From contig JBFMFK010000003.1 of the NCBI GenBank assembly GCA_040752125.1, positions 19,034 to 83,033 of the forward strand: a stretch of DNA of 64,000 bases, written 5' to 3'. Shown piece after piece: positions 9,734 through 55,712 of this stretch (position 1 is its first letter; the number at the start of each line of letters is the position of its first letter). A model generated the notes under the pieces. That model did no database searches. It was given only the letters and a program-made list of their open reading frames with translations, and was not told the DNA's origin. The DNA is from Patescibacteria group bacterium (GTDB lineage Bacteria; Patescibacteriota; Minisyncoccia; UBA9983). The translations under genes and the position numbers were made by a program.

Positions 9734-11053
9734 ATGGAAGAAAGAAATGTCGTAATAAAACTAGAGAATGTAGATTTTTACTACGATAAAGGCAAACCCA
9801 CTGAGGTGAGGGCGCTTAAAGAAATTGATCTTGACATTAAGACTGGTGATTATGTTAGTTTTTTCGGTCCGTCCGGTTGCGGCAAATCTACCATACTTTA
9901 CGTTATTGCTGGCGTGGAAAAGCCGGAATCAGGAAGGGTATTGGTCAATAATCAGGATCTGATGACTTTTTCTCCCAGAGAATTGGCAATTTACAGGCAG
10001 GTTGCCATTGGAATAATTTTTCAGAATTTTAATCTTATACCATCTGTCAGAAATATAGATAATGTTACCTTACCGATGGCCTTTTTGGGAATTTCTCCTG
10101 AAAGAAGAAGGCGCAGAGCAATGGAGATTCTTGGCCGTCTGGACATAGATGATTTAGCAGATCGTTTTCCGCATGAATTGTCCGGAGGCCAGCAGCAGAG
10201 AGTGGCCATTGCTCGAGCAATGGCCAATGACCCACCGATTATTTTAGCTGACGAACCTCTTGGCAATCTTGACACTGCCAATGCCACCAATGTTCTTGAC
10301 CTTTTAAGAAAATTCAAGGAAAGAGACGGTAAAACTATTGTTATGGTTACTCACGAGGCCTGGAGCTTGCGCGATGTGGATCGAGTCTTTTATATGCGCG
10401 ACGGAGCCATTATTAGAATAGAAGAGAGGAAAAAGAAAGAATCTGAATTGAAAAAAGTCGGCACATCATTTTATTACAAAAAGCTCTTTCCCGAATTGGC
10501 AGATGTTGAGAGCAGGGCCAAGGCAGTGGCATCTTTGATGCTTAGAGGCCATTCAAAAGAAGAAGTGAAAAGATTGGAATTTTTTCTCGTGCAGCTGATG
10601 AGGAAAAATATTGAAAAAGATTTATTCAAAAGGTGTCTGGATAGGCCATTTAAAAATGGCGGGGTCGGTCTTTGGAGACAGAAGGCTAATAAGATCGCTG
10701 ATTATGTTGAAGAGATCATCCAAGCACAGTCAGATCTTTCTGTGCTTTATAAAAAATTGGAGAAATTCCCTGATGCTCCATTATATGAAGAAATCAGCAA
10801 TTTGAGAAAGTGGCTGATTGAAGGATATGATTTGCGGTTAACACCGCTTCAAATGGGCCGCCTCAATGAAATTATTGGCGAGAGAATCAGAAATATAATC
10901 TCTGCTGAAGATTTTAAGAAAATTCTTGACCTTTCCAAAGATAAAGGAGGGGTGGGGCTGAAAATCCAGACCAGTTTAAAAATGGCTGAAAAATTGGAAA
11001 CCTTTTTGGGCAAACAAAAGACAGAAGAAATAAATAAAGAAGTAATCGTGTAG
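9734..11053 (+). CDS. ABC transporter ATP-binding protein (MacB/LolD/FtsE-type) with ~220-aa C-terminal extension containing an internal duplication
   Basis: Walker A GPSGCGKST, signature LSGGQQQRVAIARA and Walker B ILADEP are present. The C-terminal tail carries two KxGGVGL repeats (FKNGGVGLWRQK... and SKDKGGVGLKIQ...). Confidence 0.8.
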   Translation: MEERNVVIKLENVDFYYDKGKPTEVRALKEIDLDIKTGDYVSFFGPSGCGKSTILYVIAGVEKPESGRVLVNNQDLMTFSPRELAIYRQVAIGIIFQNFNLIPSVRNIDNVTLPMAFLGISPERRRRRAMEILGRLDIDDLADRFPHELSGGQQQRVAIARAMANDPPIILADEPLGNLDTANATNVLDLLRKFKERDGKTIVMVTHEAWSLRDVDRVFYMRDGAIIRIEERKKKESELKKVGTSFYYKKLFPELADVESRAKAVASLMLRGHSKEEVKRLEFFLVQLMRKNIEKDLFKRCLDRPFKNGGVGLWRQKANKIADYVEEIIQAQSDLSVLYKKLEKFPDAPLYEEISNLRKWLIEGYDLRLTPLQMGRLNEIIGERIRNIISAEDFKKILDLSKDKGGVGLKIQTSLKMAEKLETFLGKQKTEEINKEVIV

Positions 11054-11064
11054 CGAATATTTTT

Positions 11065-12336
11065 ATGGATACTCAAAAATTTCAAGAAAAAGAATTTAAG
11101 ATACAAAGAGAACAGAACATGGTGTTAAAAGCTGATTCCCACCATCTTCGGTTTGGAGATCTTTTTAAATTGTCTTTGCGAGTTTTCAGGGTGAGACCGG
11201 CAAGAACTCTGCTGACGATTTTGGGAATTTCCATAGGCATTGGCACGGTTTTGTTTTTGGTTTCTTTGGGCTATGGCCTGCAGTATATTTTAATAGGAAA
11301 ACTGGCAGCCACAGAGGATTCTTTGGTAACATTGGATGCTTATTATCCTACGGAAAGCAATCTTAACATTATGCAAAAAGACATTGATGAGATTCTTGTT
11401 ATGGAGGGAGCCCAGGAAATAAGTCCGGTGGCAGAATTCACCGGAGAAACAAAGCTAGACACTCTTTCAGGATTTGTAATGGTGAAGATAGTGCGTCCGA
11501 ATTATTTCCGCTTGTCTGGAACGGCCGCAGACAAGGGTTCTGTATTTACTGAAGGCGAGAAATCAGCAATAATTTCCAATAATGCCCTGCAGCTTTTTGA
11601 TTTGGATCCTGATAATGCTCTTGGCAAAAAGGTTTCTGTAAAGGTTTTTTTCCTGCTCAATCAAGAATCAGAAGTTAAGACTGTGGATATTACTTCGGAA
11701 TTCAACATCAAAGGCATTATCAATGACGACACCCAACAGCCTTTTATTATGATTCCTTTTGATTCAGTTCCAGAGGCACCCCCTTCTTATCAGAGGATTT
11801 TGGTCAAAGCAAAGAGCATAGATGAAGTAGAGCCATTAAGAGATAAATTGATTGCCCAAGGATTTTTAATTTCCGCGAGAATTGATTTGGTAAATCAGGC
11901 AAAAAAAATCATGACCATCATCACTATTATCTTAGGTGTATTCGGCGTAACCGCCCTAGTTGTTTCTGCTATCGGAATGTTCAATACTATGATTATCGGA
12001 TTTATGGAAAGAATTTTTGAAGTCGGAATTATGAAATCAATCGGCGCTTCAATACAGGATATCAGAAATCTTTTTCTGATGGAATCTTTCATAATGGGAA
12101 TCTTAGGCGGCATTGGCGGAATTTTGATAGGGATCTTGAGCGGAGAAATATTCAATCTTGTTTTGAATCTCATTGCCAAGAACTTGGGCGGAAAGTCTGT
12201 TCAGTTGTTTATTTATCCTTGGCAATTTTTGATTTTTATTTTTATAATCTCAGCATTAGTTGGCATCAGCTCTGGATTCTGGCCTGCGCGCAAGGCATCA
12301 AAACTGTCGCCAAAACAAGCCTTCATACAGAAGTAA
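11065..12336 (+). CDS. ABC transporter permease, FtsX/MacB-like (N-terminal TM, large extracytoplasmic domain, three C-terminal TM helices)
   Basis: The N-terminus LRVFRVRPARTLLTILGISIGIGTVLFLVSLG and the C-terminal TM bundle are typical of the MacB_PCD/FtsX family. Confidence 0.75.
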   Translation: MDTQKFQEKEFKIQREQNMVLKADSHHLRFGDLFKLSLRVFRVRPARTLLTILGISIGIGTVLFLVSLGYGLQYILIGKLAATEDSLVTLDAYYPTESNLNIMQKDIDEILVMEGAQEISPVAEFTGETKLDTLSGFVMVKIVRPNYFRLSGTAADKGSVFTEGEKSAIISNNALQLFDLDPDNALGKKVSVKVFFLLNQESEVKTVDITSEFNIKGIINDDTQQPFIMIPFDSVPEAPPSYQRILVKAKSIDEVEPLRDKLIAQGFLISARIDLVNQAKKIMTIITIILGVFGVTALVVSAIGMFNTMIIGFMERIFEVGIMKSIGASIQDIRNLFLMESFIMGILGGIGGILIGILSGEIFNLVLNLIAKNLGGKSVQLFIYPWQFLIFIFIISALVGISSGFWPARKASKLSPKQAFIQK

Positions 12337-12406: not shown

Positions 12407-12820
12407 ATGAATGGTCCAATAAAAATTCTGGCGATTGAGGATGATGAATTTATAAGAATCTTGTTAATGGATATTTTCTGGATTCATGGTGTCAAAGACA
12501 ATCTTCAGCTTCTTCTGGCTAGCAACATCAGCGAGGCAAGAGATATTTTAAATAGAGAGAAACCAGCATTGATTATTTTGGATATGATGCTGCCTGAAAA
12601 AGAAGAAGAGCCGTTGAATAAGCTTGCTGGTTGCAAATTTTTGGAAGAATTAAAGAAAAACTCGCGAACACGAGATATTAAAATACTTGTATTTTCTGGT
12701 TTTGACGATAAAGAGCTAAAGGAAAAAGCAATGAAATTAGGAGCAGATAAATTTTTAGTCAAAGGAGAGCATATGCCAAAAGAGCTTTTAGATTCAATAA
12801 AAGAGCTAATCAACATATAA
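12407..12820 (+). CDS. stand-alone response-regulator receiver domain (CheY-like)
   Basis: IKILAIEDDEFIRILL, ALIILDMMLP and a conserved K (KILVFSG) are present. There is no output domain, and no histidine kinase is visible in the window. Confidence 0.75.
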   Translation: MNGPIKILAIEDDEFIRILLMDIFWIHGVKDNLQLLLASNISEARDILNREKPALIILDMMLPEKEEEPLNKLAGCKFLEELKKNSRTRDIKILVFSGFDDKELKEKAMKLGADKFLVKGEHMPKELLDSIKELINI

Positions 12821-12859
12821 TTTTGCTTTGTTTCTCGCGAAAGCAAGAAGAATTTCTCT

Positions 12860-12890
12860 ATCTCGCATCCACGAGATTTTTATTTTTTCA
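12860..12890 (+). terminator. rho-independent terminator (ATCTCG-catcca-CGAGAT + TTTTATTTTTT)
   Basis: Direct read downstream of the receiver gene. Confidence 0.65.
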
Positions 12891-12978
12891 GAAATTGAAA
12901 AAATTTTTTATCATCAGGAGATAAACGAATTTTTATTTATCCACAAGAAAAACAATAAAAAACATATCAAAAAAAACA

Positions 12979-13020
12979 ATAATGCAATATAATTAATGCA
13001 ATATAATTAACATTAATAAT
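12979..13020. repeat. tandem ~14-nt direct repeat (TAATGCAATATAAT x2 + degenerate third copy) upstream of the MNT gene
   Basis: Direct read. Confidence 0.7.
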
Positions 13021-13030
13021 GTATTAGCAA

Positions 13031-13363
13031 TGTATTAAGGGAAGGCATATCGAAAAACCAATCAAAAAATTTTCAATAAATAAAAAAGAAGCAGAGCAGA
13101 TTAAAAATATAATCAAAAGACATATTAATCTGAGAGATTATAAAATTTTTATTTTCGGATCGCGAGCAAAGGGCAGAGCTCGAAAATTTTCTGATTATGA
13201 TGTAGGAATTATAGGTAAGAAAGAAGTGCCTAGCGAGAAAATGATTTTGATTGAAGAAGAATTTGAAAATTCAGATTTGCCATATAGTGTTGAAGTAATA
13301 GATTTTGCTATGGTGAGTGATGATTTTAAAAAAATTGCTTTAAAGAAAATTAAAAAACTATGA
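13031..13363 (+). pseudogene. minimal nucleotidyltransferase (MNT, HI0073-like) with an in-frame TAA at codon 3 after the only ATG (otherwise intact 107-codon reading frame; may use a non-AUG start)
   Basis: The frame carries GSRAKGRARKFSDYDVGI (GSx9-11SDxD NTase motif), followed by EVIDFAM. It reads ATG TAT TAA GGG AAG..., and there is no ATG, GTG or TTG between the TAA and the NTase motif. The ORF is absent from the supplied ORF track for that reason. Confidence 0.55.
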
Positions 13364-13374
13364 GCTAAAACCAA

Positions 13375-13755
13375 ATGAAGAAAGAGAGAAAAGACACACT
13401 AATTGAAAAGTTTGAAGAAGCCTTTCAGAGATTGGAAGAAGCAATTAAAGAACGGCCGACTCAAATGAACAAAGATGCAACTATCCAACGTTTTGAATTT
13501 ACTTTTGAATTAAGTTGGAAAGCGGCGCAAGCATTTTTGAAAGATCAAGGCATTGTTTGTAAAAGTCCGCGAGATTGTTTCAGAAAGTCTGCTGATTATG
13601 GTCTGATTAAAAGTCCAACACCCTGGTTTGATTTTTTAAAAGCAAGAAATAATATTGCGCATACCTATAACCAAAAGATGGCAGATAGGATTTATAAAAA
13701 AGCAATTAAATTTCCAAATTTCGCTGAAAAACTTTTAAAAAATTTAAAAGAATAA
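13375..13755 (+). CDS. HEPN-domain nucleotidyltransferase substrate-binding protein (HI0074 family), partner of the upstream MNT
   Basis: IQRFEFTFELSWKA and the R-x4-H motif ARNNIAHTY are present. It follows the MNT gene after 11 nt. Confidence 0.7.
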   Translation: MKKERKDTLIEKFEEAFQRLEEAIKERPTQMNKDATIQRFEFTFELSWKAAQAFLKDQGIVCKSPRDCFRKSADYGLIKSPTPWFDFLKARNNIAHTYNQKMADRIYKKAIKFPNFAEKLLKNLKE

Positions 13756-13765
13756 CTTAACAAAC

Positions 13766-13860
13766 ATAAAAAAGTTTTTCAAAAATATTATAATAAATAA
13801 AAAATCCGAAATCCGAAATCCTAAACAAATTTCAATGAATCAAATCCCAAATTCAAATTA
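13766..13860. repeat. ~95-nt leader repeat R1 (AAAAAGTTTTTCAAAAATATTATAATAAA...AAATCCGAAATCCGAAATCCTAAACAAATTTCAATGAATCAAATCC), duplicated at 14521..14611
   Basis: The two copies are about 90% identical, each placed directly upstream of an operon start. Each contains a TATAAT and a triple AAATCCN direct repeat. Confidence 0.85.
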
Positions 13861-13867
13861 AAAACAT

Positions 13868-14098
13868 ATGATAACAAAAATCCCATTGAAATCTTATAAA
13901 AAACAAATCTCTTTGAAACGTTTCTCGGGGAAATGGGTAGCTTTTATTAATGATAAAGTTATTGCCTGGGCAGATAACCTTCAAGATTTAGAGAGAAAGA
14001 TAAAAAAGATAAGACCCAAAAAGGAACCAGTTTATTTTTTGGTACCAAGAAAAGATGAAGGGCCCTATATTTTGTTTCCCATACATTTTCCACAATAA
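13868..14098 (+). CDS. small hypothetical protein, DUF5678-like (GKWVAF..DKVIAWADNLQDLERKIKK)
   Basis: The ORF is 76 aa. Its pattern resembles the DUF5678 family that I recall from archaea and thermophiles. The assignment is from memory, not from a search. Confidence 0.4.
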   Translation: MITKIPLKSYKKQISLKRFSGKWVAFINDKVIAWADNLQDLERKIKKIRPKKEPVYFLVPRKDEGPYILFPIHFPQ

Positions 14099-14114
14099 TT
14101 CAATATGAAAAAAC

Positions 14115-14504
14115 ATGGAAAAAGAATTTAATTATTCACAAAAAGATAATAAATGGTATCCAACTATTGATGTAATTCTTCAAGGTCATGTGCGAGGGCG
14201 AGCCTTTAGGGCTTTAGTTGATTCTGGGGCTTCTATTTCAATATTTCGAGGAGAAGTTGCTGATTATTTAGGAATTCTTTTAGAAAAAGGAAAGCCGACG
14301 TATTTAACCGGAGTTGGTGGAAGAATTTTAGGTTACTTACATAAAATTCCTGTAGAAATTGAAAATAAAAAATTTAATTGTAAAATCATTTTTTCACGAG
14401 AATATACAGTTTCTTTTAATATTTTAGGTCGTGATAACTTTTTCTTGCCGTTTTTAATCACTTTTAACGAGAAGATGAGAAAATTAAAAATTATTGATTA
14501 TTAA
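14115..14504 (+). CDS. retropepsin-like aspartic protease (clan AA, single-domain, presumably homodimeric)
   Basis: The canonical active-site motif is present as ALVDSGASISIF (hydrophobic-hydrophobic-D-S/T-G-A), followed by a GVGG flap-like segment. Length is 129 aa. Confidence 0.6.
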   Translation: MEKEFNYSQKDNKWYPTIDVILQGHVRGRAFRALVDSGASISIFRGEVADYLGILLEKGKPTYLTGVGGRILGYLHKIPVEIENKKFNCKIIFSREYTVSFNILGRDNFFLPFLITFNEKMRKLKIIDY

Positions 14505-14520
14505 TTATGAGATGAGAAAA

Positions 14521-14611
14521 TATAAAAAAGTTTTTCAAAAATATTATAATAAAAAATCCTAAATCCTAAATCCTAAACAAATTTCAATGAATCAAATCCT
14601 AAAATCCAAAC
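14521..14611. repeat. leader repeat R2 (copy of R1)
   Basis: See R1. Confidence 0.85.
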
Positions 14612-14614
14612 AAT

Positions 14615-14740
14615 ATGAGAATTAAAATTTGCAAAAAATATTTGGCAATAATTACAATCGTTGTTCTTCTTTTGGGAATGATGCCGGCAAAAGAAGTTGA
14701 GGCGGCCACTTTTAGCAGGATGTTAATTAAAAATTTTTAA
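14615..14740 (+). CDS. 41-aa signal-peptide-like mini-ORF duplicating the N-terminus of the giant surface protein (…KEVEAATFS…), translationally coupled (TAATG) to the MNT gene
   Basis: MRIKICKKYLAIITIVVLLLGMMPAKEVEAATFSRMLIKNF can be compared with MRKFEKFLKKTLSIILLVILVSSALFANPQTVEAATFNW of the 15443 gene. At nucleotide level, gttgaggcggcCacttttaG aligns with gttgaggcggcGacttttaA. Confidence 0.3.
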   Translation: MRIKICKKYLAIITIVVLLLGMMPAKEVEAATFSRMLIKNF

Positions 14741-15087
14741 TGAATTATTCCATGGGTACCAAAATTGAAATTAAAAATTTACCAAAAGAGTTGAGGAAGA
14801 AAAGAATAGAAGAAAAATTAGCAGAAATTTGTGAACGCGAGGCCATAATCCTTATGTCTGTCTTTGGTTCTTTTGTTAAGGGACAGCAAAGAAAAAAAAG
14901 CGACATTGATATGGCAATTGAGTTTGCTAAAAATAGTGGAAAAAGCCTTTTGGATTTAGTTCGGATAGAAAATGAATTGACAAAAATATTTAAAAGAAAA
15001 GTAGACCTCGGGATTTTCAGCAGCCTAAATCCTTACATAATTCAAGATGTAAAAAAAGAAATGCAAACAATTTATGAAAAAAGATAA
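14740..15087 (+). CDS. minimal nucleotidyltransferase MntA-like (antitoxin of HepT/MntA type VII TA pair)
   Basis: The NTase motif FGSFVKGQQRKKSDIDMAI is present. The gene overlaps the downstream HepT by 14 nt. Confidence 0.75.
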   Translation: MNYSMGTKIEIKNLPKELRKKRIEEKLAEICEREAIILMSVFGSFVKGQQRKKSDIDMAIEFAKNSGKSLLDLVRIENELTKIFKRKVDLGIFSSLNPYIIQDVKKEMQTIYEKR

Positions 15088-15412
15088 GGCCTATTTAAAG
15101 CATATTTTAGATGCAATAGCCGATATAAAGAAATTTACAGAAGATATCTCAGAAGAAAAGTTTTATGAAGATAAAGAAAAACAGTATGCTGCCTTGAGGG
15201 GGCTTGAGATAATTGGCGAGGCAACAAAGAATCTTAGTAGGGAGTTAAGAGCAAAGAATCCTGAGATTCCCTGGAAAGATATTGCAGGTATGAGAGATAA
15301 GTTAATTCATGAATATTTTGGTGTCAATCTGGAATTAGTTTGGGAAACTATTAAAGATAGACTTCCTAAACTTAAAAAACAAATTTCTGAAATATTAAGT
15401 AACCTTAAATAA
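15074..15412 (+). CDS. HepT-like HEPN toxin (DUF86)
   Basis: It carries the R-x4-HxY motif MRDKLIHEYFGV and has the typical size of 112 aa. Confidence 0.75.
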   Translation: MKKDKAYLKHILDAIADIKKFTEDISEEKFYEDKEKQYAALRGLEIIGEATKNLSRELRAKNPEIPWKDIAGMRDKLIHEYFGVNLELVWETIKDRLPKLKKQISEILSNLK

Positions 15413-15442
15413 AATTTAGTAAAAAAGTAAAAAGAAAAAAAT

Positions 15443-18400
15443 ATGAGAAAATTTGAAAAATTTTTAAAGAAAACTTTATCAATAATCCTTTTGGTTATTT
15501 TGGTTAGTAGTGCTCTTTTTGCAAATCCCCAAACTGTTGAGGCGGCGACTTTTAATTGGACGCAGAGTAATTGGTCTGGCGGGGCTTCTGCCAACACTGC
15601 TTCTCATCCTACCAATCAAACCGGCTGGAGTTATTATGCTTCAAAAGATGCTAATTTATCCGCTGGAGCGAGCAGCTTAACTCTCTCCACTATTGCTTCT
15701 TCCACCACCCAAACCACGAATGCTGATTTTAATTCGGGAGCAACTTCAACAACGCAGGTGAGTAATAATAGTGTGGTGTTGGCAGTAGAAACGCCGGGAG
15801 CTTCTTGTGAAAGTAGCATTACTGTTAACCACACTGCCGGCGCAATATCGCCAATTACCACAAGTATTACTTATGGAACGGTAATTACTAATCTTACAGG
15901 ATCTAATAAATGCTGGATAACCCAAAACCTTGGTGCTTCCCAACAGGCAAGTTCAGCTACTGATAATACCGATGCCTCTGCTGGCTGGTATTGGCAATTT
16001 AACCGCAAGCAGGGGTATGCAGTTGGGCCAACACCTGCCTGGACAATTACATCCATTGATGAATCTAGCGACTGGACTTCAGCTAATGACCCCTGCACCA
16101 TAGAGCTGGGCACCGGTTGGCGCTTGCCTACTTATACTGAATGGGCTAATGCTGATGGAGGATGGGCTAACTATAACGATACATACGCTTCTGTGTTAAA
16201 ACTCCATGCTGCTGGCGGCCTCTTCGCCAGCAGTGGCGGCCTGTACGGCAGAGGCGCGACCGGCCTCTACTGGAGCAGTACTCAGTACATTAGCACCCTC
16301 GGCTACTACCTGATCTTCGACAGCAGCAGCAGCAACATGGGCAGCGACAACAATAAGGCGTCTGGGTTTTCGGTGCGCTGCCTTACAGATAATATTTTAG
16401 GCTACTACTCCTCTGGCACTTTTACTTCTAATGTGATTAATCTTGGAACAAATGTAAATTGGGGCAATCTTTCCTGGACTGAAACAGGAACAGGCACGAT
16501 AACTATGAAAGCTCGGTCTTGTGATGACAGCGCTTGTTCTGGTGAAGCAGCTTTCACAAGTTGTTCTAATATCACTAATGGCGCGGCTTTATCAACTGGT
16601 AATTGTGTAACTAATGGTCATCAATATATTCAATATCAAACTGCGCTCTCAACTTCAGATATCTCATTTACACCTTCTTTAGATGACGTGACTATTGGAT
16701 ATAATTATTATCCTTCTTCTCAAAATCTAACTTCATCTAAATACGATTCCTCATCTGACGGCAATGTTATTGGCGGCCTGGCTTGGGATGAGGATGCGAC
16801 TCTTACTTCTGGAACGAGTGTAACCCTGTCACTTCGCACTGCTTCAAGCACAGTTAATCTTGATTCTGCCTCTTGGAGCGATTTTACCAATGCCACAGCA
16901 AATTGTTCTAAAGCAGGGACAAGAGTAACTTGCACCTCTTCAGCCATTCCTTCTTCTATGAAAGACGGCTCTGGCGACCAGTGGCAGCAATATAAAGTTA
17001 CTCTGACTTCTACTGGTGCTAACAAACCCACTGTAACATCTGTCATTCTCACTTATGTGGTTAATGCTCGGCCGGAGTTTGATGTGCCTAATACCACTGC
17101 TTCCCAAATCTCTGATTCCGGCAGTGCTAACTGGGGCAAGGTGCAGATAACTTATCCTATTAAAGACATTGATACTACTTCTGGTTCTATTACTCCCGGA
17201 TATGTCACTCCTTCTTTTGAATATAATACTGGCTCTGGCTGGACAACCATTACCTCTGGTTATTTGAATTCCGGAGCTTTAGACAATAAAGCGGTGCAGG
17301 AAGGAAGCTATACATCGCACACTGCTTATTGGGACGCCAAAACGCAGATCCCTAGCACTTATACAACGACCGGCCAGATACGTATCACTATAAATGATAA
17401 TGAGGGCGCCAATAATTCCACCAGCACTACCATTTCCAATATTACCATTGACACTACGAATCCAACTTTATCAGCTTTTACCCTTGACTCGTCCGCGGAT
17501 ACTTTAACGATTTCTGCTTCTGATAATTCTAATCTCCAATATCTAATTTCTAATAACCAAGACGGCTCGGCTGATGGCTCTAATGCTATTTCCAGCTCTT
17601 GGCAAACAGTAGGAGGAACTTCTACCAGTACTACCCGCGCCTGGGCATATTCTCCGGACTCCACTGGTTATGAATCAGTTACTATTGCCTACAGAGATAT
17701 TTACGGAAACACTGCCACTACCACAGATATAGCGCCTTATCAGCCCAAGAACTTTTACTATAAAGATATCTGCAATACTGCTATCAATGACTGGAGAGAA
17801 TTTCTTTCTTGGGGAGTGTATACTGCCACCACCACTTCTTCTTGGGCTAATTACAAAGTTTATCGGTCCACAGATGGAACGACTTATTCTTTGCTTGGCA
17901 CTTTAAGCAGTGACGTTAATACCAATTACTATATTGATTCTTCTGTAGCTTCAACTACTACTTATTATTATAAAGTTTTAATCACTGATTCTGACGGAGA
18001 TATTTCATCTTTCACAGACCCGGTGTCCGATCTGCCCAATGGCCAGGGCGGTTCTGACTCTACCGCTCCCTTAATCACTTCCGGCCCTACTGTGACAGAA
18101 ACCAAATCAACCTGGGCAAGCATTGTCTGGACAACAGACGAGATTTCCAATTCAGTGGTGGAATACGGCTTGACAACTAGCTACGGCTTAACCAGCACGG
18201 TAAACACTATGGTTACTTCTCATTCTGTAACTTTAACCGGGCTCACTCCCAACACCACTTATTATTTTCGGGTTAAATCAACAGATATTGCCTCTAACAC
18301 GGTCACATCAAGCGGCTCGTCATTTGTCACCACTCAAGGACCGATTATCTCTTCTGTCACAGCAGAGAGCGTGACTGACAATACCGCTTCTATTGTCTGG

Positions 18401-20335
18401 AACACTACCACTGATTCTTCTTCTTGGGTCTATTATTCCACCAGCGCCTCGTTTACCAGTTCTTCTACAGAAGGCACTAATACTTTGGTTGGCACCTCAA
18501 CTGCCGGCTATTACCAGCACCGCGTAACCCTGACTGGACTGACAAAGAACACAACCTACTATTATTATGTTAAGTCAACTGACGCTAATTCTGACACTGC
18601 CACAGACACCAATGGCGGCAATTATTATACTTTTACCACTACTTATGACAATCAGCCGCCAGTGATTTCAGACATTACAGTTCCGGTCCGGGCATATAAC
18701 GCTTTGGTTGTTACCTGGAACACTGATGAAAACGCCAATACACGGCTGTATTATGATACTGTAAGTCATGTTGATTGTTCTGGATATTCTAATAGTTCAA
18801 CTTTAGACACCAACCTGACTATTTCCCATGCTGCGGCAATAACTTCCCTTATTGGAGAAACCGCTTATTATTACAGGGTTATTTCAGCTGACGCTAATGG
18901 CAACACCACTTGCTCTAGCGAGCAGGAGACCTCCACTGTGGCTGAGAATGAAATTATTACTGTTTATGTCGGCGGTGGAGGGCCTTCTACGCCTGTTGTT
19001 GTTGATACCACAGCCCCGGCTATTTCCAATATTAATGTCAGCGATATCTCGGCTTTTGGAGCAACAGTGAATTTTAGCATCAGCGAGCCAGCAGCAGGAT
19101 TTGTTCATTACGGCAAGGACACTAATTACGGATTTATTGCCGGTTCTGACACCTTGGCCTCCAGCCACAGCGTAAAATTAGCCGGCTTGCGCCTGGGCAC
19201 AGAATATCATTATAAAGTAACGGCTATGGACAAAGCCGGTAATGTGGGCCAGTCTTCAGACCAGACCTTTTCCACTCTTTTTGCTGCAGAGGCTCTGGAA
19301 GAATTAACGACTTTGGAAAATGCAGAGCAGTTCCAGGAGCAACTAGAAGGAATAATTGAGTCAGTTATGCCTTCCTTGGTTCCTCCTTTTGTGAGCAATG
19401 TCATAGTTGACAATATCACAGAAACTTCTGCTACGGTCAAATGGAAAACCAATATTCCTGCTTTCGGTTCTGTTTCCTATGCAAGTGATTCTGAATATAA
19501 TCAAGACAAGGAAAAACCATATGTGGTGGAAATTGTTGAGAGTACAAAAGAAAAAATTAAAGAACATACTCTAGAGCTGCGCGACCTCTCTCCCGCAACC
19601 AAATATCATCTTCAGGCAAAGTCTTATGTTTTTCCGGATGTGATAGGCAAATCCAAAGATTCTGAATTTTATACATTATCATCAAAGATAAAGCCGGAGA
19701 TCACAAGAGTGGGCAATACTGATGCTGAAGTGAGATGGGTGACTGCTAAAGAAACATCTTCTTTTGCCGAATACCGAAATCTTGCGACAAATAAATTAGG
19801 AAGGATGGGAGATGATAGAAGAGTTCAAAGTCACTTCTTAAAGATAGAAAATCTTGCTCCGGGAACAAATTATGAAATCAAGGTCTTTGGCTATGACCAA
19901 GACAATAATATTATTGAAGCTGATTCCATTACCATCAGGACCAAACAAGATATATCTCCGCCTGTTATTTCTTCCATCAGGATTGATAATGCCATGGTTC
20001 CCGGCAAAAGGGATAAACTTCAGACAGTGATCTCCTGGAAAACAGACGAATCATCCAATTCCCGAGTTTATTTTGAAGAAGGAATTGGAATTTCAGATAA
20101 GCTTACCAATAAGACTGGTCAAGAGAATGAATATACCACAGACCACATTGTCATCATTACCTCAATGAAGCCAGCCACAGTTTATAGAATCAAAGTTTCT
20201 TCCAGGGATGAGGCCGGCAATACAGCTGATTCTCCAATGAGGACCTTTTTGACTCCGCGCTCTGCAGAATCTGTTTTAGATGTCATTGTCCGCAATTTTG
20301 AGGAAAGCTTTGGATTCCTCAAGCGCCTGCGCTAA
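15443..20335 (+). CDS. 1630-aa secreted/surface protein: signal peptide, FISUMP/DUF1566-like domain (…CWITQNLGA…GWRLPTYTEW…GFSVRCL), Ser/Thr-rich linker regions and ~7 fibronectin-III/PAP-N-like repeats
   Basis: The N-terminus has a hydrophobic core followed by VEAATF. The FISUMP hallmarks KCW..QNL, GWRLPT..EW and G.SVRC are present. The repeated FN3-type units each end in ...Y.Y.V.S.D..GN. There is no C-terminal anchor. Confidence 0.85.
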   Translation: MRKFEKFLKKTLSIILLVILVSSALFANPQTVEAATFNWTQSNWSGGASANTASHPTNQTGWSYYASKDANLSAGASSLTLSTIASSTTQTTNADFNSGATSTTQVSNNSVVLAVETPGASCESSITVNHTAGAISPITTSITYGTVITNLTGSNKCWITQNLGASQQASSATDNTDASAGWYWQFNRKQGYAVGPTPAWTITSIDESSDWTSANDPCTIELGTGWRLPTYTEWANADGGWANYNDTYASVLKLHAAGGLFASSGGLYGRGATGLYWSSTQYISTLGYYLIFDSSSSNMGSDNNKASGFSVRCLTDNILGYYSSGTFTSNVINLGTNVNWGNLSWTETGTGTITMKARSCDDSACSGEAAFTSCSNITNGAALSTGNCVTNGHQYIQYQTALSTSDISFTPSLDDVTIGYNYYPSSQNLTSSKYDSSSDGNVIGGLAWDEDATLTSGTSVTLSLRTASSTVNLDSASWSDFTNATANCSKAGTRVTCTSSAIPSSMKDGSGDQWQQYKVTLTSTGANKPTVTSVILTYVVNARPEFDVPNTTASQISDSGSANWGKVQITYPIKDIDTTSGSITPGYVTPSFEYNTGSGWTTITSGYLNSGALDNKAVQEGSYTSHTAYWDAKTQIPSTYTTTGQIRITINDNEGANNSTSTTISNITIDTTNPTLSAFTLDSSADTLTISASDNSNLQYLISNNQDGSADGSNAISSSWQTVGGTSTSTTRAWAYSPDSTGYESVTIAYRDIYGNTATTTDIAPYQPKNFYYKDICNTAINDWREFLSWGVYTATTTSSWANYKVYRSTDGTTYSLLGTLSSDVNTNYYIDSSVASTTTYYYKVLITDSDGDISSFTDPVSDLPNGQGGSDSTAPLITSGPTVTETKSTWASIVWTTDEISNSVVEYGLTTSYGLTSTVNTMVTSHSVTLTGLTPNTTYYFRVKSTDIASNTVTSSGSSFVTTQGPIISSVTAESVTDNTASIVWNTTTDSSSWVYYSTSASFTSSSTEGTNTLVGTSTAGYYQHRVTLTGLTKNTTYYYYVKSTDANSDTATDTNGGNYYTFTTTYDNQPPVISDITVPVRAYNALVVTWNTDENANTRLYYDTVSHVDCSGYSNSSTLDTNLTISHAAAITSLIGETAYYYRVISADANGNTTCSSEQETSTVAENEIITVYVGGGGPSTPVVVDTTAPAISNINVSDISAFGATVNFSISEPAAGFVHYGKDTNYGFIAGSDTLASSHSVKLAGLRLGTEYHYKVTAMDKAGNVGQSSDQTFSTLFAAEALEELTTLENAEQFQEQLEGIIESVMPSLVPPFVSNVIVDNITETSATVKWKTNIPAFGSVSYASDSEYNQDKEKPYVVEIVESTKEKIKEHTLELRDLSPATKYHLQAKSYVFPDVIGKSKDSEFYTLSSKIKPEITRVGNTDAEVRWVTAKETSSFAEYRNLATNKLGRMGDDRRVQSHFLKIENLAPGTNYEIKVFGYDQDNNIIEADSITIRTKQDISPPVISSIRIDNAMVPGKRDKLQTVISWKTDESSNSRVYFEEGIGISDKLTNKTGQENEYTTDHIVIITSMKPATVYRIKVSSRDEAGNTADSPMRTFLTPRSAESVLDVIVRNFEESFGFLKRLR

Positions 20336-20411
20336 CGTTAAAATCAGAAATTAAAAATCAAAACTCTTTGTAATTTGTTAAAAATATGTTATATTATATT
20401 TTTGACATTAT

Positions 20412-20482
20412 GGGCCTATAGTTTAGTGGCAGAACACCGCTTTTGCACAGCGGAAATGGCAGTTCGATTCTGCCTAGGTCCA
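20412..20482 (+). tRNA. tRNA-Ala (anticodon UGC)
   Basis: The cloverleaf can be drawn by hand. The acceptor stem GGGCCTA/TAGGTCC includes the G3:U70 wobble that is the Ala identity element. The anticodon stem is CCGCT/AGCGG with loop TTTGCAC, the T-loop is TTCGATT, and there is no encoded CCA. Confidence 0.85.
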
Positions 20483-20483
20483 A

Positions 20484-21185
20484 ATGCATCCTCTTTTTGA
20501 AGCGCACCTAGAGAGAAAGACATTTGATCATGGATACTTAATGTTGGGTGATTTTTCAGTTTCTCTTTCATATGTTATGGAAGCTGCAAAAGTTATTCTT
20601 GATCCTCCGGCTGGCAGATTAGACATTCATCCTGATTTTTTTCATTTTAGATTTGGCTCTTTCGGCATTGACAACAGCAGGGAAATAATTTATAAAGCCT
20701 CGCAGAAACCGCTTTTGGGAAGGGCAAAAGTTTTTATCATTGAAACAAACTCTTTCACAATAGAATCAGCCAATGCGCTTTTAAAAATAATGGAAGAACC
20801 AACCAAAAATACCTTTTTTTTCATCATTGCTTCAGCCAGAGAAAATATTATTCCTACGCTTTGTTCACGATTGACAATCATAAATAATTTTATATCTGAC
20901 ATAAAAATTGGTGGAGAAGAGAGGAAAATTTATGAAAAATTTTTTTCTGATCTGCCGACAAAAAGGATAAATTTAATAAAATCTTTTGAAAAAGACAGAC
21001 AAAGAGCCATAAAATTTCTTAACGGCCTAGAGATTTTTTTATCAGAAGAGTTAATTAGAAAGAAGAATATCTCTATCTCCGAAGCCTTAAAAGAGATAGC
21101 GAGGACACGCGGATTGATTTTGAGCAGAGCCGCCTCTGTCAAGATGATAATGGAACATCTTGCCTTAAGTTTACCGCAAATGTAA
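20484..21185 (+). CDS. holB: DNA polymerase III delta-prime (HolB)-like clamp-loader subunit, degenerate P-loop
   Basis: SANALLKIMEEP and PTLCSRL are present (delta-prime sensor-1/SRC region). The start directly abuts the tRNA, so the true start may be downstream. Confidence 0.5.
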   Translation: MHPLFEAHLERKTFDHGYLMLGDFSVSLSYVMEAAKVILDPPAGRLDIHPDFFHFRFGSFGIDNSREIIYKASQKPLLGRAKVFIIETNSFTIESANALLKIMEEPTKNTFFFIIASARENIIPTLCSRLTIINNFISDIKIGGEERKIYEKFFSDLPTKRINLIKSFEKDRQRAIKFLNGLEIFLSEELIRKKNISISEALKEIARTRGLILSRAASVKMIMEHLALSLPQM

Positions 21186-21210
21186 AATAGGAATAATCAT
21201 CAAAAAGTTT

Positions 21211-21759
21211 ATGTATGATTTGTCAGCAATCAATAAAAAGGGTGCGGAAATGAAAGACTGGTTCAAAAAGGAAATAGGCTCATTGCGCACCGGCCGGGCC
21301 ACCCCAGCCTTAATGGAAAATATTTTTGTTGATGTCTATGGCAGTAAAAGCCTCGTCAAACAAGTCGCTTCAATTACTGTTGAAGATGCAAAGACTCTGC
21401 GCATTACGCCATGGGATGTTTCCTTGCTAAAAAATATTGAGAATGCACTGATGAACGCGAATTTCGGGAGCAATCCGATCGTTGATAAACAATCTGTCAG
21501 CATATCATTGCCTCAACTGACTGAAGAAAGGAGGAAGGCATTAGTAAAAATTGTCAATGAAAAGCTGGAGCAGGCAAAAATCTCTTTGAAGGTGGAGCGC
21601 GATGAATTATGGAGAGACATCCAAGAAAAAGAAAGGAAAGGCATCATTACCGAAGATGAAAAATTCAGATTAAAGGATAAATTACAGAAGGAACTTGCAA
21701 AAATTAATGATGAGCTCACAGAAATTGCTGTACGCAAAGAAGAAGAAATAATGAGTTAA
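21211..21759 (+). CDS. frr: ribosome recycling factor
   Basis: LRTGRATPALMENIFVDVYGS is present, with the coiled-coil C-terminal half typical of RRF. Confidence 0.85.
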   Translation: MYDLSAINKKGAEMKDWFKKEIGSLRTGRATPALMENIFVDVYGSKSLVKQVASITVEDAKTLRITPWDVSLLKNIENALMNANFGSNPIVDKQSVSISLPQLTEERRKALVKIVNEKLEQAKISLKVERDELWRDIQEKERKGIITEDEKFRLKDKLQKELAKINDELTEIAVRKEEEIMS

Positions 21760-21765
21760 AAATTT

Positions 21766-22818
21766 ATGTCTATTATCTTATTTGTTTTTATTTTGGCTCT
21801 TTTAATTTTGTCCCACGAATTTGGACATTTTATTATTGCCAAGAAAAGCGGAGTGCGGGTAGATGAATTCGGTTTTGGATTTCCGCCCAGACTTTTAAAA
21901 TTCAAAAAGGGTGAGACAATTTACAGCATCAATCTTATTCCCTTTGGCGGATTTGTAAAGATATATGGAGAAGAAGGAGCGGAGAAGCAAGACCCAAGGA
22001 GTTTTGCTTCCAAACCAATTAGCATCAGGGCTTTGGTGATAGCAGCAGGCGTTATTTTCAATATTTTTCTTGGCTGGATTTTGATTTCCAGCGGATATAT
22101 GGTGGGCCTGCCCACCAGCGTCAGTTCTGCGCCAGCAGGTGCGGAAATAAGCGAGAGAAGCATTATTATTTTGGAAGTCAGGAACGGAACGCCAGCTGAA
22201 ATCGCTGATTTAAAAGCAGGCGACAAAATTCTTGGTTTTAATTCCATTGAAGAATTCCAAAGTTTTGTTGCAGAAAATAAGGGCAGGGAAGTGAAATTAA
22301 ATTACCAAAGAGGCGAAGAGAATTTTTCGGCAAAAATTACACCAAGAGCAGATCCTCCTCAAGGTCAAGGGTCTTTGGGGATTAGTTTGGATGAAATTGG
22401 GATTGTGAAAATTCCTTGGTATCGGGCGGTGTGGGAAGGGGCAAAGGTAACTTACAATTTGCTTATTACAATCGCTGTTTCCATTTATATGTTTGTTGCC
22501 AATGCCATCAAAGGTCTGGCGGGATTTGAGCAGGTCTTGGGGCCGGTGGGAATTGTTACCGTAACCGGCACTGTGGCAAAAATGGGGTTTGCTTATATTT
22601 TGAATTTTGTCGCTTTGCTTTCTATCAATTTAGCTATCATTAATATCCTGCCTTTTCCGTCATTGGACGGCGGCCGGCTGTTGTTTCTGGCAATAGAGAA
22701 AATAAAGGGATCGCCAGTTAATCCGAAAATCAGCGGCATTATCCATAGCATCGGCCTGGCATTGCTTTTAATTCTTATGCTCGCCATAACCTACCATGAT
22801 ATCATGAGGTTGATATAG
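21766..22818 (+). CDS. rseP: RIP metalloprotease RseP (site-2 protease, M50) with PDZ domain
   Basis: HExxH is present as LSHEFGHFIIAK. A PDZ-like segment lies between the TM helices, and the C-terminal motif LPFPSLDGGRLL is present. Confidence 0.85.
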   Translation: MSIILFVFILALLILSHEFGHFIIAKKSGVRVDEFGFGFPPRLLKFKKGETIYSINLIPFGGFVKIYGEEGAEKQDPRSFASKPISIRALVIAAGVIFNIFLGWILISSGYMVGLPTSVSSAPAGAEISERSIIILEVRNGTPAEIADLKAGDKILGFNSIEEFQSFVAENKGREVKLNYQRGEENFSAKITPRADPPQGQGSLGISLDEIGIVKIPWYRAVWEGAKVTYNLLITIAVSIYMFVANAIKGLAGFEQVLGPVGIVTVTGTVAKMGFAYILNFVALLSINLAIINILPFPSLDGGRLLFLAIEKIKGSPVNPKISGIIHSIGLALLLILMLAITYHDIMRLI

Positions 22819-43520: not shown

Positions 43521-43550
43521 GGCTTGCCCTGCGAAGCTTCAGCGAAGTGG

Positions 43551-43622
43551 GACCTCTTCGTCTAGTGGTTAGGACACATGGTTCTCAGCCATGCAACACG
43601 GGTTCGACTCCCGTAGAGGTCA
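43551..43622 (+). tRNA. tRNA-Glu (anticodon CUC)
   Basis: Cloverleaf drawn by hand. The acceptor stem is GACCTCT/AGAGGTC. The anticodon stem is CATGG/CCATG with loop TTCTCAG, and the T-arm is ACGGG-TTCGACT-CCCGT. Confidence 0.85.
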
Positions 43623-43639
43623 ATGCTATAATAAGACCA

Positions 43640-47375: not shown

Positions 47376-47927
47376 ATGGCAAGATATAGTCCCTATAGAA
47401 AAAAGATTCTTTTAATGCTTTTGGCTGGTGTGGCTTTAGGATTGACTTATTCTCCGAGAGGTCAAAAAAAGATTCTGAAAGCATTTATAAAAGATTGGAA
47501 AAATATAGAACGCGACAGATTATATTATCTACTGAATGAGTTTAAATATGAACGGCTGATAGATTATCAAGAATCAAGTAATGGAACAATCAAGGTTATA
47601 TTAACTGAAAATGGTAAGAAAAAAGCGCTTCAGTATGACTTTGATGAAATAAAAATTAAAAAACCAAGTCAATGGGATGGTAAATGGAGATTGGTTATAT
47701 TTGACATTCCGGAGCGAATTAGAAAAGGGAGGGATGCTTTAAGAGATAAATTAAAAGACCTTGATTTTTATGAATTGCAAAAAAGTGTCTGGGTTCATCC
47801 GTATCCTTGCGAAGATGAGATTAATTTTATAACCGAAGTTTTTGACTTAAGATCTTATATTAGATTTGCTGAAATAATAAAAATTACAAATGAAGCAAAA
47901 TTAAAATTGCATTTTAAATTATATTAA
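47376..47927 (+). CDS. PaaX-like small transcriptional regulator (N-terminal winged helix + WDGKW…VIFDIPE C-terminal domain), paralog 1
   Basis: WDGKWRLVIFDIPE matches the PaaX middle-domain hallmark WDGKW. It is 45% identical to the minus-strand paralog at 63205..63759. Confidence 0.6.
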   Translation: MARYSPYRKKILLMLLAGVALGLTYSPRGQKKILKAFIKDWKNIERDRLYYLLNEFKYERLIDYQESSNGTIKVILTENGKKKALQYDFDEIKIKKPSQWDGKWRLVIFDIPERIRKGRDALRDKLKDLDFYELQKSVWVHPYPCEDEINFITEVFDLRSYIRFAEIIKITNEAKLKLHFKLY

Positions 47928-54091: not shown

Positions 54092-55712
54092 ATTTTGTTA
54101 TTATCTTCACAAACTCTTTAAACAAAGGGTGGGGATTTAAGGGGCGCGATTTAAATTCTGGATGGAATTGTACGCCAACAAAAAATGGGTGTTTCTTCCG
54201 TGATAATTCTGCTATTTCCATTAATTTTTTATCAGGGGATTGGCCGGAAAAAATTAATCCCTTCTTTTCTAAAATCTTAATGTAATCAGGATTCACTTCC
54301 CAACGATGCCGATGTCTTTCCGAGATCAAATGTTCTTTATAGGCGTTGAAGGCAATGGTATTTTTCTTTAAGATAGCTGGATAAGCGCCCAATCTCATCG
54401 TGGCTCCATAATTTTTATCTTCCAGATTTTTCTTTTGGTCAGGTAAAATATCAATCACAGGATATCTTGTCTTTCTGTCTACTTCTGTGGTATTTGCCTT
54501 TTTCAAGCCGCAAACATTTCTTGCAAATTCTACAACCATCAGCTGCATGCCATAACAAAGACCAAAAAAAGGAATTTTATTTTCACGACAGAATTGTATT
54601 GCCTTTATTTTTCCTTCGATTCCCCTACTCCCAAACCCCCCGGGCACAATGATGCCCTGATAATTTTTTAAATCTTTCAGGGCCTTAGGATCTTTTTCAA
54701 ATTTTTCAGCATCAATCCAGTTAATCGCTGGCCTTCTTTTATAAAAACAAAGAGCATGCTTAACAGATTCTATTACAGAAATATAAGAATCTGATAAGAG
54801 GAAATCACCGGTTCCGAAATATTTTCCAACTACGCCGATCTTCAACGGTATTTTTGAGGCCCTTAGATATCTTACCATCCGCTGCCACCTCTTCAGGTTT
54901 CTTTTTTTAGGCTTAAGCTTCAACTTTTTCAAGATAATATCGCTAAGTCTTTCTTTTTCAAAATTGATCGGCGCCTCATAAATACTTTCTATATCTGGAG
55001 CAGAAATTGTCTCCTCTTCCTGCATGCTGCAGTTTACTGCAATTTTTGCCTTGCGTTTTTTATCAAGGGGCATTCTTGATCGCGCAATGATGATGTCGGG
55101 CTGTATGCCCGCTGAATTTAATGTGCGTACAGCATACTGAGTTGGCTTTGTTTTCATCTCCCCGATTTTGCTTGGTATAGGAAGATAGCTTACCAGAATA
55201 AAAAGAACATCGTTTGGTTTCCTCAGTTTTAATATCCTTGCGGCTTCCAAAAATAGGATATTCTGGTATTCTCCAACTGTCCCGCCAATCTCTATAATGA
55301 TAAAATCTGCCCTTGCCTTTTGGCCGGCCTTTTTGATTCTTTCAATTACCTCTAGGGGAATATGGGGCACAACTTCAACACATTTGCCACCATAACCTAA
55401 GTTTCTTTCTCTATTTATCACGGAAAGATAAATACTTCCTGTTGTCATATAATTAATCGCCGGCAGGTTTATATCTAAAAACCTTTCGTAATTTCCCATA
55501 TCTTGGTCGGTTTCTGTTCCCTCTTCCAAAACAAAAACTTCTCCATGTTCAGTCGGATTCATTGTACCTGCATCTACATTTACATAGGGATCAATTTTAA
55601 TGGCAGTAACATTAAATCCTCTAGATTGCAGAATCTTACCAATGGCAGCAGAGGCAACACCTTTCCCTACCCCAGAAATTACACCGCCAACTACAAAAAT
55701 ATATTTGGTCAT
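54078..55712 (-). CDS. pyrG: CTP synthase
   Basis: The N-terminus reads [17 protein letters not shown] GATase C-terminal half with the GLCYGMQ motif is present. Confidence 0.9.

Follow-up and report, generated by a model that had tools for sequence, protein, structure and literature searches.

A Patescibacteria surface-protein locus composed of an inherited gene cluster, two-gene modules in a single gap and an exchanged head domain with marks of retroelement hypermutation

Organization of the interval

We analyzed the interval from 12.85 to 20.4 kb of a 64-kb stretch of DNA (the window) from contig JBFMFK010000003.1 of a metagenome-assembled genome (MAG; GCA_040752125.1) of low GC content (~35%) from the Patescibacteria, or candidate phyla radiation (CPR). 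Gene families in the window were called by Pfam and NCBIfam profile searches. Between the gene for a stand-alone response regulator (the receiver) and a tRNA-Ala gene followed by holB, the interval carries three pairs of small genes, a mini-ORF (open reading frame) and a 4.9-kb gene for a giant surface protein, all on the + strand (Table 1). An earlier note, made from the sequence alone, had described this run as an accessory island bounded by the tRNA gene, or else as a hyper-variable surface/defence locus. Its inventory of features was accurate in every item, coordinates included: the pair of an MNT and an HI0074-type HEPN gene, the DUF5678-like gene with its retropepsin-like partner, which matches four clan-AA Pfam families, the leader mini-ORF coupled to an MNT and HepT pair, and both the tandem and the dispersed repeats (the 14-mer, R1 and R2). 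The interval as a whole is composite and not one acquired island. A conserved backbone, modules lodged in one gap and a swapped surface-protein head derived from a diversity-generating retroelement (DGR) together provide what we consider a quite probable explanation for it.

In the terminator-like hairpin downstream of the receiver gene, 3 of the 6 base pairs of the stem are GC, and TTTTTATTTTT follows. The tandem 14-mer that precedes MNT1 is possibly a promoter or operator.

Table 1 Features between the receiver gene and holB, with positions in the window
Feature	Position	Strand	Evidence or remark
Receiver, stand-alone response regulator	12407-12820	+	PF00072, 7e-15; left flank, member of the conserved cluster
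Terminator-like hairpin and T-run 3' of the receiver	12860-12888	+	Putative; consensus scan only
Tandem 14-mer TAATGCAATATAAT upstream of MNT1	12980-13010		2.2 copies, 100% matches, Tandem Repeats Finder score 62
MNT1	~13049-13363	+	NF047752, 1.5e-9
HEPN1, HI0074 family	13375-13755	+	PF08780, 2.5e-33; TIGR01987, 94.4 bits
Repeat R1	13759-13867	+	~100 nt; ends at the DUF5678 ATG
DUF5678 protein, 76 aa	13868-14098	+	PF18929, 3.8e-12
Retropepsin-like aspartic protease, 129 aa	14115-14504	+	PF13650, PF13975, PF09668, PF00077 (clan AA)
Repeat R2	14515-14614	+	Second R copy; ends at the mini-ORF ATG
Mini-ORF, 41 aa	14615-14740	+	Translation; stop overlaps the MNT2 start (TAATG)
MNT2	14740-15087	+	PF18765, 1.5e-17; PF01909, 4e-15
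HepT	15074-15412	+	PF01934, 2e-32, 111.9 bits; 14-nt overlap with MNT2
Giant FN3-repeat surface protein, 1630 aa	15443-20335	+	FN3 / Pur_ac_phosph_N repeats
Swapped head domain, aa ~120-316	15800-16390	+	FISUMP/DUF1566-like (CLec2-type), lectin-like
DGR-type patch resembling a variable region	16206-16386	+	Spike in third-position GC and in codons ending in C; alignment with the variable region and template repeat of L080 and L097
tRNA-Ala(TGC)	20411-20483	+	Conserved holB neighbour
holB (DNA polymerase III delta')	20484-21185	+	PF13177; frr and rseP next, as in L003

The surface protein gene belongs to a conserved cluster

We compared 64 loci surrounding homologues of the ATP-binding cassette (ABC) permease encoded next to the interval, mapping the window proteins onto them by tblastn and drawing ORF maps for the three nearest relatives, L001, L003 and L004. 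The best matches of the permease, at 62-67% identity, are in MAGs labelled Wolfebacteria, Terrybacteria or Paceibacterota. The surface gene, which makes up 64% of the interval, encodes a protein that is 55% identical to its orthologue in L001 (the best match besides itself in the collections searched), 44% identical end-to-end to that in L003 and 37-46% identical to many others. Composition-based statistics in BLAST suppressed the window/L003 alignment of these Thr/Ser-rich proteins, leaving only a 79-aa match; with the composition adjustment off, as such proteins need, the two align over 1,738 columns at 44% identity, and the synteny counts for the surface protein were made with this setting. 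In 28 of the 64 loci the surface-protein C-terminal region is encoded at most 9 kb from the permease; when only the 36 loci with at least 7 kb on both sides are counted, 19 show this linkage.

Among related loci the usual order is surface, receiver, ATPase, permease, with the surface stop codon 15-291 nt from the receiver start in 18 loci, and in most related loci receiver orthologues adjoin the ABC genes. The order ATPase, permease, receiver, surface is common to the window and its nearest relatives L001, L003 and L004. In L003 the gene order runs receiver, surface, ddl, tRNA-Ala(TGC), holB, frr, rseP, and its tRNA-Ala is nearly identical to that of the window but inverted. Gene order in relatives had been proposed in the earlier note as a check on the island, its conservation counting against one; for the backbone it proved to be kept, as L003 illustrates. 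The synteny of the surface gene and the order in L003 together place the 4.9-kb gene and the tRNA-Ala/holB junction in the inherited backbone. Judging from these comparisons, the surface gene is a vertically inherited orthologue in Paceibacteria, and the backbone of ABC ATPase, MacB/FtsX-type permease, receiver, FN3 surface protein, tRNA-Ala, holB, frr and rseP has descended vertically within this Patescibacteria (Paceibacteria) clade.

The tRNA-Ala gene is a conserved neighbour of holB rather than a site of island attachment. Between 12.8 and 20.5 kb no gene matches an integrase, recombinase or transposase family in Pfam or NCBIfam, as the earlier note had observed for integrases and transposases, and a search of the window that allowed up to 3 mismatches found the 25-nt 3' end of the tRNA once. 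Elements that target tRNA genes sit 3' of the tRNA, and the interval lies on the 5' side of tRNA-Ala. The locus is like tRNA-associated genomic islands in that a run of accessory genes adjoins a tRNA, but it differs from them in having neither integrase nor att repeat, in lying on the wrong side of the tRNA and in being mostly conserved in relatives.

The cluster of ATPase, permease, receiver and FN3 protein (9734-12336, 12407-12820 and 15443-20335 in the window) is conserved in many Paceibacteria (L001-L064 and L075). Its ATPase is MacB/LolD/FtsE-like, its permease belongs to the FtsX family, and a conserved motif, ...SAESV.D.I.KNF.E.F.FLK.L, closes the giant FN3 protein. The functional link within the cluster might lie in export, anchoring or mechanotransmission. 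The two ABC proteins match the models for MacB, LolD/LolCE and FtsE/FtsX, in keeping with MacB/LolCDE/FtsEX-type systems, but they score far below the equivalog cutoffs, and the ATPase has a C-terminal extension of ~200 aa. Such systems are not known to be linked to a giant FN3 protein or an orphan receiver. In L075, a JGI contig with the orthologous surface/ABC cluster, ~4.8 kb downstream of the ABC permease (17122-21923) is without called genes.

Base composition of the interval

The surface gene had been singled out in the earlier note for its atypical composition. Its GC content of 0.434 is indeed high, with a GC content of 0.506 at second codon positions (~0.3 elsewhere), but GC content at third codon positions (GC3) is 0.385, within the window range of 0.17-0.42. 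The protein contains 14.4% Thr, 13.6% Ser, 7.5% Ala and 6.9% Gly, and this amino-acid content accounts for most of the GC excess and for the negative GC skew of the gene. It is thus possible for amino-acid usage to raise the GC content of a surface gene. In the six small genes GC3 is 0.17-0.29, which is low, like that of other small genes of the window, and codon-usage scores are normal. The GC and codon-usage profile that the note had suggested thus separates no island from its surroundings; the sole exception is a sharp GC3 spike at ~16200-16390, a patch of 180 nt in the surface gene.

An exchanged head domain with a DGR-type patch

Orthologues share aa 1-115 of the surface protein and the part from ~310-321 onward, and between these conserved blocks they carry unrelated domains, which include beta-propeller-like repeats, LamG, RCC1, YncE-like and other domains. 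The head (aa ~120-316) has been exchanged among orthologues and is represented in the window by a lectin-like FISUMP/CLec2 version whose last 60 codons were in all likelihood written by a DGR. The window head matches TIGR02145 at 7e-5, below the cutoff, and is 50-66% identical to FISUMP domains in Bacteroidota-type and small secreted proteins and 61% identical to the DGR target of locus L080. DUF1566, DUF823 as well as Fib_succ_major domains form a recognised class of variable regions (VRs) of DGRs (PMC5758913; PMC4159848).

The patch comprises codons 255-315 of 1630 and overlaps the most GC-rich 150 nt of the window (peak ~16201-16360). Its GC3 reaches 0.88, and codons ending in C (NNC) make up 61% of it vs 23% of the rest of the gene. 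Two of the closest homologues of the window head are canonical DGR targets, with complete cassettes in L080 and in a further locus, L097, where a C-terminal VR is followed ~250 nt downstream by a template repeat (TR), then by Avd and a reverse transcriptase (RT) with YVDD, and where 15/16 of the TR/VR mismatches fall at TR adenines. When the patch is compared with the L080 TR, which is heterologous and not its cognate template, NNC stands at 17 of the 18 AAC codons of the TR, with 11 different codons and Asn kept twice, and the amino acid is kept at 35 of the 43 other codons. This combination of NNC at TR-AAC codons with conservation of the others points to a patch written by a DGR; the patch bears the marks of DGR hypermutation and resembles a VR.

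The window domain is homologous to DGR targets of category 'd'/CLec2 (DUF1566, DUF823 as well as Fib_succ_major, of the Legionella LdtA type) and to those of L080 and L097, and as in these targets the VR-like patch lies at the end of the domain, with NNC where a related TR has AAC. It differs from them in being internal to a 1630-aa protein and not C-terminal, and in its surroundings. We found no second copy of the patch that could be its TR within the 64-kb window, no Y[AVMIL]DD motif of a DGR RT in window ORFs of at least 150 aa, and no match to the L080 RT or Avd in the window with a tblastn E value of 0.3 or lower. Nor does a stable hairpin follow the patch (z score +0.6 vs -2.9 in L080 and L097). 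Among database homologues no donor for the GC-rich patch stands out, similarity being 43% inside and 56% outside the patch.

Other loci contain related arrangements. Small secreted proteins in L077, L079, L082, L085, L086, L105, L108 and others have a C-terminal FISUMP-type domain with a jump in GC3 over the last ~60 codons, and no template repeat was found for them in the several kb of flank at hand. In this FISUMP-type subfamily, VRs that are orphans or have a remote template seem to be common. L021 (Wolfebacteria CP011209) contains a DGR pair ~9 kb downstream of the ABC permease (VR 19981-20112, TR 20481-20612; 132 nt with 24 mismatches, 92% of them at TR adenines) together with an Avd-like four-helix ORF at 20612-20917 (- strand). 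This pair is unrelated in sequence to the window patch.

A variable gap between the receiver and surface genes

The gap between the receiver and surface genes measures 2.6 kb in the window and holds three two-gene modules, two of MntA/HepT type and one formed by the DUF5678 and retropepsin-like genes. In L001 only 57 nt separate the receiver and surface genes and the gap has no modules; in L003 it holds a single coiled-coil gene, and in L004 a PaaX-like gene, two coiled-coil genes and an HEPN-MNT pair unrelated to those of the window. This gap alone is the accessory part of the interval, and it would act as a landing slot for autonomous two-gene modules. Of the locus imagined in the earlier note as hyper-variable, what stands is the variable gap and the swapped head with its DGR-type VR; the surface gene itself belongs to the inherited backbone.

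A third MNT (PF18765) and HepT (PF01934) pair, with a 4-nt overlap and a GC3 of 0.21-0.27, is found at 56203-57011 of the window, alone between rplI (55709-56134, - strand) and the gene for an S41 C-terminal-processing peptidase (57000-58220, - strand). The position of this lone pair among housekeeping genes indicates that such modules scatter singly. The PaaX-like gene of L004 encodes 181 aa (11685-12230) and was labelled from its sequence appearance only; the window has PaaX_M (Cas2-like) genes of ~184 aa at 47376-47927 and 63205-63759. Genes of PaaX_M type may thus form a further family of small accessory genes that recurs in such genomes.

The MNT/HEPN pairs

In both pairs of the gap the gene for the MNT, an MntA-like minimal nucleotidyltransferase, lies upstream and the HEPN gene downstream, and each protein has fewer than 150 aa. 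The MNT motif GSX10DXD is present as GS-X10-DYD in MNT1 and GS-X10-DID in MNT2 (read as GSRAKGRARKFSDYD and GSFVKGQQRKKSDID), and the HEPN motif RX4HXY as RNNIAHTY in HEPN1 and RDKLIHEY in HepT; both motifs were defined for the HepT/MntA type VII toxin-antitoxin (TA) system (PMC7641770). In that system MntA poly-AMPylates the tyrosine of RX4HXY and thereby silences the HepT RNase, and the Pfam pairings named for such TA pairs are PF01934/PF01909 and PF08780/PF01909 (PMC7641770). Matches above cutoff were obtained for PF01934 (111.9 bits), PF08780 (115.2 bits) and TIGR01987 (94.4 bits, cutoff 55.8), and matches below the NCBIfam equivalog cutoff of 60 for NF047752 (57.9 and 37.7) and NF047751 (47.2 and 22.7), the value of 57.9 bits for MNT2 with NF047752 lying just under it. 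The intact motifs and the published mechanism suggest that in each window pair the MNT partner would AMPylate the Tyr of RX4HXY and so neutralize the HEPN RNase. HEPN1 is presumed to be an RNase toxin, and HepT the toxin for which MNT2 would be the antitoxin.

The window pairs resemble HepT/MntA of Shewanella oneidensis (SO_3166/SO_3165), including the HI0073/HI0074 subclass (PF08780), in the upstream MNT gene that overlaps or abuts the HEPN gene, in both motifs and in Pfam families. They differ from it in their equivalog scores (57.9 and 47.2 vs 60), in the lack of a canonical start codon in MNT1 and in the relic ORF of 41 codons that precedes MNT2 and is translationally coupled to it. From 13028 onward the MNT1 frame is open, and its first ATG, GTG or TTG lies at 13226 (codon 67), so that the start at 13049 in Table 1 assumes an ATC start; MNT1 would either use an ATC, ATA or ATT start or have lost its start codon. 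PADLOC and PHROGs searches returned generic MNT matches only, plus one weak match of the protease described below.

In L080 an MNT-HepT pair (22-637) lies directly upstream of the DGR target gene (696-1760), in a juxtaposition like that of the window. The two pairs are 41-47% identical, which is ordinary family-level similarity, and on this ground we rejected an en-bloc acquisition of MNT2-HepT together with a DGR-target head in the arrangement of L080. The juxtaposition in L080 is probably a coincidence.

The DUF5678/retropepsin pair

We found more than 400 homologues of the protease, at identities of up to 76% (vs at most 55% for the surface protein), and 62 of the DUF5678 protein, at identities of up to 71%; nearly all homologues of both are on short Patescibacteria-type contigs, and many from one set are on contigs of the same length as those of the other. 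The pair recurs with a 4-nt overlap in three unrelated contexts, namely beside a PT-HINT protein gene, inside a type IV pilus or type IV secretion system-pilin locus, and between two transketolase subunit genes beside a PIN gene (L069, where the DUF5678 ORF is present though missed by the gene caller). These distributions argue that the pair is widespread in Patescibacteria and mobile as a unit. Our literature search found nothing on a pairing of DUF5678 with a retropepsin, and the pair appears uncharacterised.

The protease scores 33.5 against PF13650 (cutoff 24.3), and in an alignment of 38 sequences DSGA and ILGRDNFF are invariant. Its AlphaFold2 model, with a mean predicted local distance difference test (pLDDT) score of 80, shows a single-lobe retropepsin fold, for which Foldseek gave as the best match the Rickettsia conorii protease APRc (5c9f; template modelling score 0.71, probability 1.00), followed by HIV and SIV proteases. 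With APRc and the retroviral proteases the window protease shares the single-lobe clan-AA fold, DSGA and the GRD/N motif. It differs from them in being soluble, with 129 aa and no membrane domain, and in that it always lies behind an upstream DUF5678 gene, in a pair that shifts contexts like a TA module. The DUF5678 protein is modelled as a small beta-beta-alpha-beta core (AlphaFold2 pLDDT 74), for which neither fold nor sequence gave a significant match in the Protein Data Bank. Its C-terminal tail, (F)LVPRKDEGPYIL, is invariant among the 62 homologues and is predicted to be disordered (pLDDT <70).

This invariant tail would dock into a dimeric aspartic protease, either as a pseudo-substrate inhibitor or as a dedicated substrate. 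We tentatively propose, on sequence and predicted structure, that the pair may be an undescribed mobile TA-like or defence module, with the dimeric protease as the effector and the tail of its partner as inhibitor or substrate, although we consider this less likely than not. The pair is the most novel lead of the region, and as a possible TA or defence system built on a protease it is open to experimental work.

Repeats flanking the modules

Repeats R1 and R2 are roughly 90% identical over ~100 nt, with a mean column identity of 88% across the aligned stretch with flanks, and within the window their 30- and 31-nt cores are found just twice, where chance would yield 0 copies. Each ends exactly at an ATG, so that the two bracket the DUF5678 and protease genes, and each carries a TATTATAAT box and three AAATCCK heptads. 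Neither strand of R1 or R2 folds better than shuffled sequences (z score +0.6 for R1), and R has no Rfam match at E values up to 1, which led us to reject a structured RNA or a known RNA family. An integron-type cassette array was also rejected, as the repeats are not attC-like palindromes and no integrase is present. The 25-nt core of R, with two copies in the window, has no match in the metagenome or viral contig collections, and no R-like sequence was found upstream of DUF5678 genes at the homologous loci examined; by these searches R is a local sequence. R1 is presumed to be a promoter with an unstructured leader.

The mini-ORF encodes a signal peptide and the residues VEAATF, and in this it resembles both the surface-protein N-terminus (…TVEAATFNW) and the AATYTF found at the N-termini of the surface-protein family. 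In the motif region 18 of 19 nt are identical to positions 15536-15554 of the surface gene, and a local alignment of the mini-ORF with the surface 5' end scores 35, a value reached by none of 500 shuffles (mean 18.7, maximum 31). By this likeness the mini-ORF is a relic duplicate of the surface-gene 5' end, and MNT2-HepT has a copy of the initial ~100 nt of that gene on either side. A string beginning ATGAGAA(A/T) is found at the protease 3' end, the R2 5' edge, the mini-ORF start and the surface-gene start (14477-14541, 14615 and 15443), and over their first 30 nt R2 and the surface gene are 80% identical. This likeness at the R2 5' edge may reflect a further degenerate relic of the surface 5' end or chance in AT-rich DNA.

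We infer that two insertions would have left direct target duplications of ~100 nt, R1/R2 around the DUF5678 and protease genes and the relic and true surface 5' ends around MNT2-HepT. Single-crossover (Campbell-type) integration of small circles would give this flanking arrangement. As a consequence, MNT2-HepT and the surface gene would now probably share the R2 promoter and leader.

Weighing of the explanations

A classical genomic island, in which the whole 7.6-kb block was acquired horizontally next to tRNA-Ala and later lost its integrase, would account for a run of accessory-type genes that ends at a tRNA, for the low GC3 of the small genes and for the repeats of the region. It has hardly any chance of being correct, given a surface gene that is conserved, syntenic and of normal GC3, the retention in L003 of the order from that gene through tRNA-Ala, holB, frr and rseP, the lack of an integrase and of a duplicated tRNA 3' end, and the location of the block 5' of the tRNA. 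The example indicates that, in CPR genomes, what looks like a run of small accessory genes beside a tRNA can prove to be a conserved cluster in which a single gap has taken up modules. An artefact of assembly, a chimeric MAG contig with the patch or the modules stitched in from other populations, is suggested by the metagenomic source of the genome and by the sharp difference in composition between patch and flanks. It is likewise highly improbable: the reading frame is intact across both patch junctions, the head is contiguous, with homology to single FISUMP domains over its full length, it is rare for a chimera to leave and rejoin a sequence within 180 nt, and the modules show host codon usage. 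A functionally coupled surface/defence locus, with TA and protease modules co-transcribed with the surface gene from R1/R2 and regulating or stabilising the locus, is rather unlikely. The TAATG overlap that ties the mini-ORF to MNT2, the gap of only 30 nt without a terminator-like site between HepT and the surface gene, the HEPN-MNT pair in the same slot of L004 and the MNT-HepT pair upstream of the L080 DGR target are all in line with coupling, but the modules of L004 and L080 are of different or distant families (no match or 41-47% identity), the slot is empty in L001, and modules of these types are also found in other places, between unrelated genes. The explanation by a conserved backbone, modules in one gap and a swapped head is made of components of known kinds, namely TA pairs of type VII, a lectin-like head derived from a DGR and an ABC cluster of MacB type. 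Several points weigh against it. Only L003 shows the tRNA-Ala/holB junction, with the tRNA inverted and ddl between tRNA and surface gene, and in 36 of the 64 loci the surface orthologue is not next to the ABC genes. The closest genomes in the searched collections have 55-67% protein identity, so the presence or absence of modules was judged across deep divergence and not among strains. The Campbell-type model draws on two diverged repeat pairs, of which R was not found elsewhere in the collections searched; database support for the DUF5678/retropepsin pair is limited to a weak PADLOC match of the protease (PDC-M08B, 4e-4); MNT1 is without a canonical start codon, and the MNT1-HEPN1 pair may be decaying; and TR, RT and Avd are all missing from the window.

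For the patch, two main readings have to be considered within the same explanation. It may be the active remote target of a DGR elsewhere in the genome, with a head that is continuously diversified. Its sharp boundaries and undecayed GC3 and NNC composition in a 35%-GC genome would suit such activity, as would the many close homologues with the same VR signature and no local TR; remote DGR targets at distances above 100 kb have been reported (PMC5758913), and among cell-encoded DGRs one clade restricted to CPR is on record (PMC8144416). In surveys, on the other hand, VRs lie at C-termini, since the cis elements must be intergenic (PMC8144416), and this one is internal; the downstream hairpin seen in L080 and L097 is missing, as are the DGR components from the window. 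We therefore consider an active target possible but doubtful; if true, an active internal VR would break the C-terminal-only rule. Because the window has no TR or RT and the patch no downstream hairpin, a recently captured, or fossil, VR is the likelier reading, and plain gene conversion or an artefact makes up the remainder. With a captured VR, the giant protein beside a MacB-type ABC system would have an exchangeable head, borrowed here from a DGR target together with its hypermutated ligand-binding surface. Domain grafting of this kind points to a way in which episymbiotic CPR bacteria may retool attachment to hosts or particles.

An additional observation in the window

The ORF listed for a P-type ATPase (43547-46306, GTG start) overlaps the gene for tRNA-Glu(CTC) at 43551-43622. 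Its Pfam matches begin at aa 39, and its true start is probably downstream of the listed GTG.

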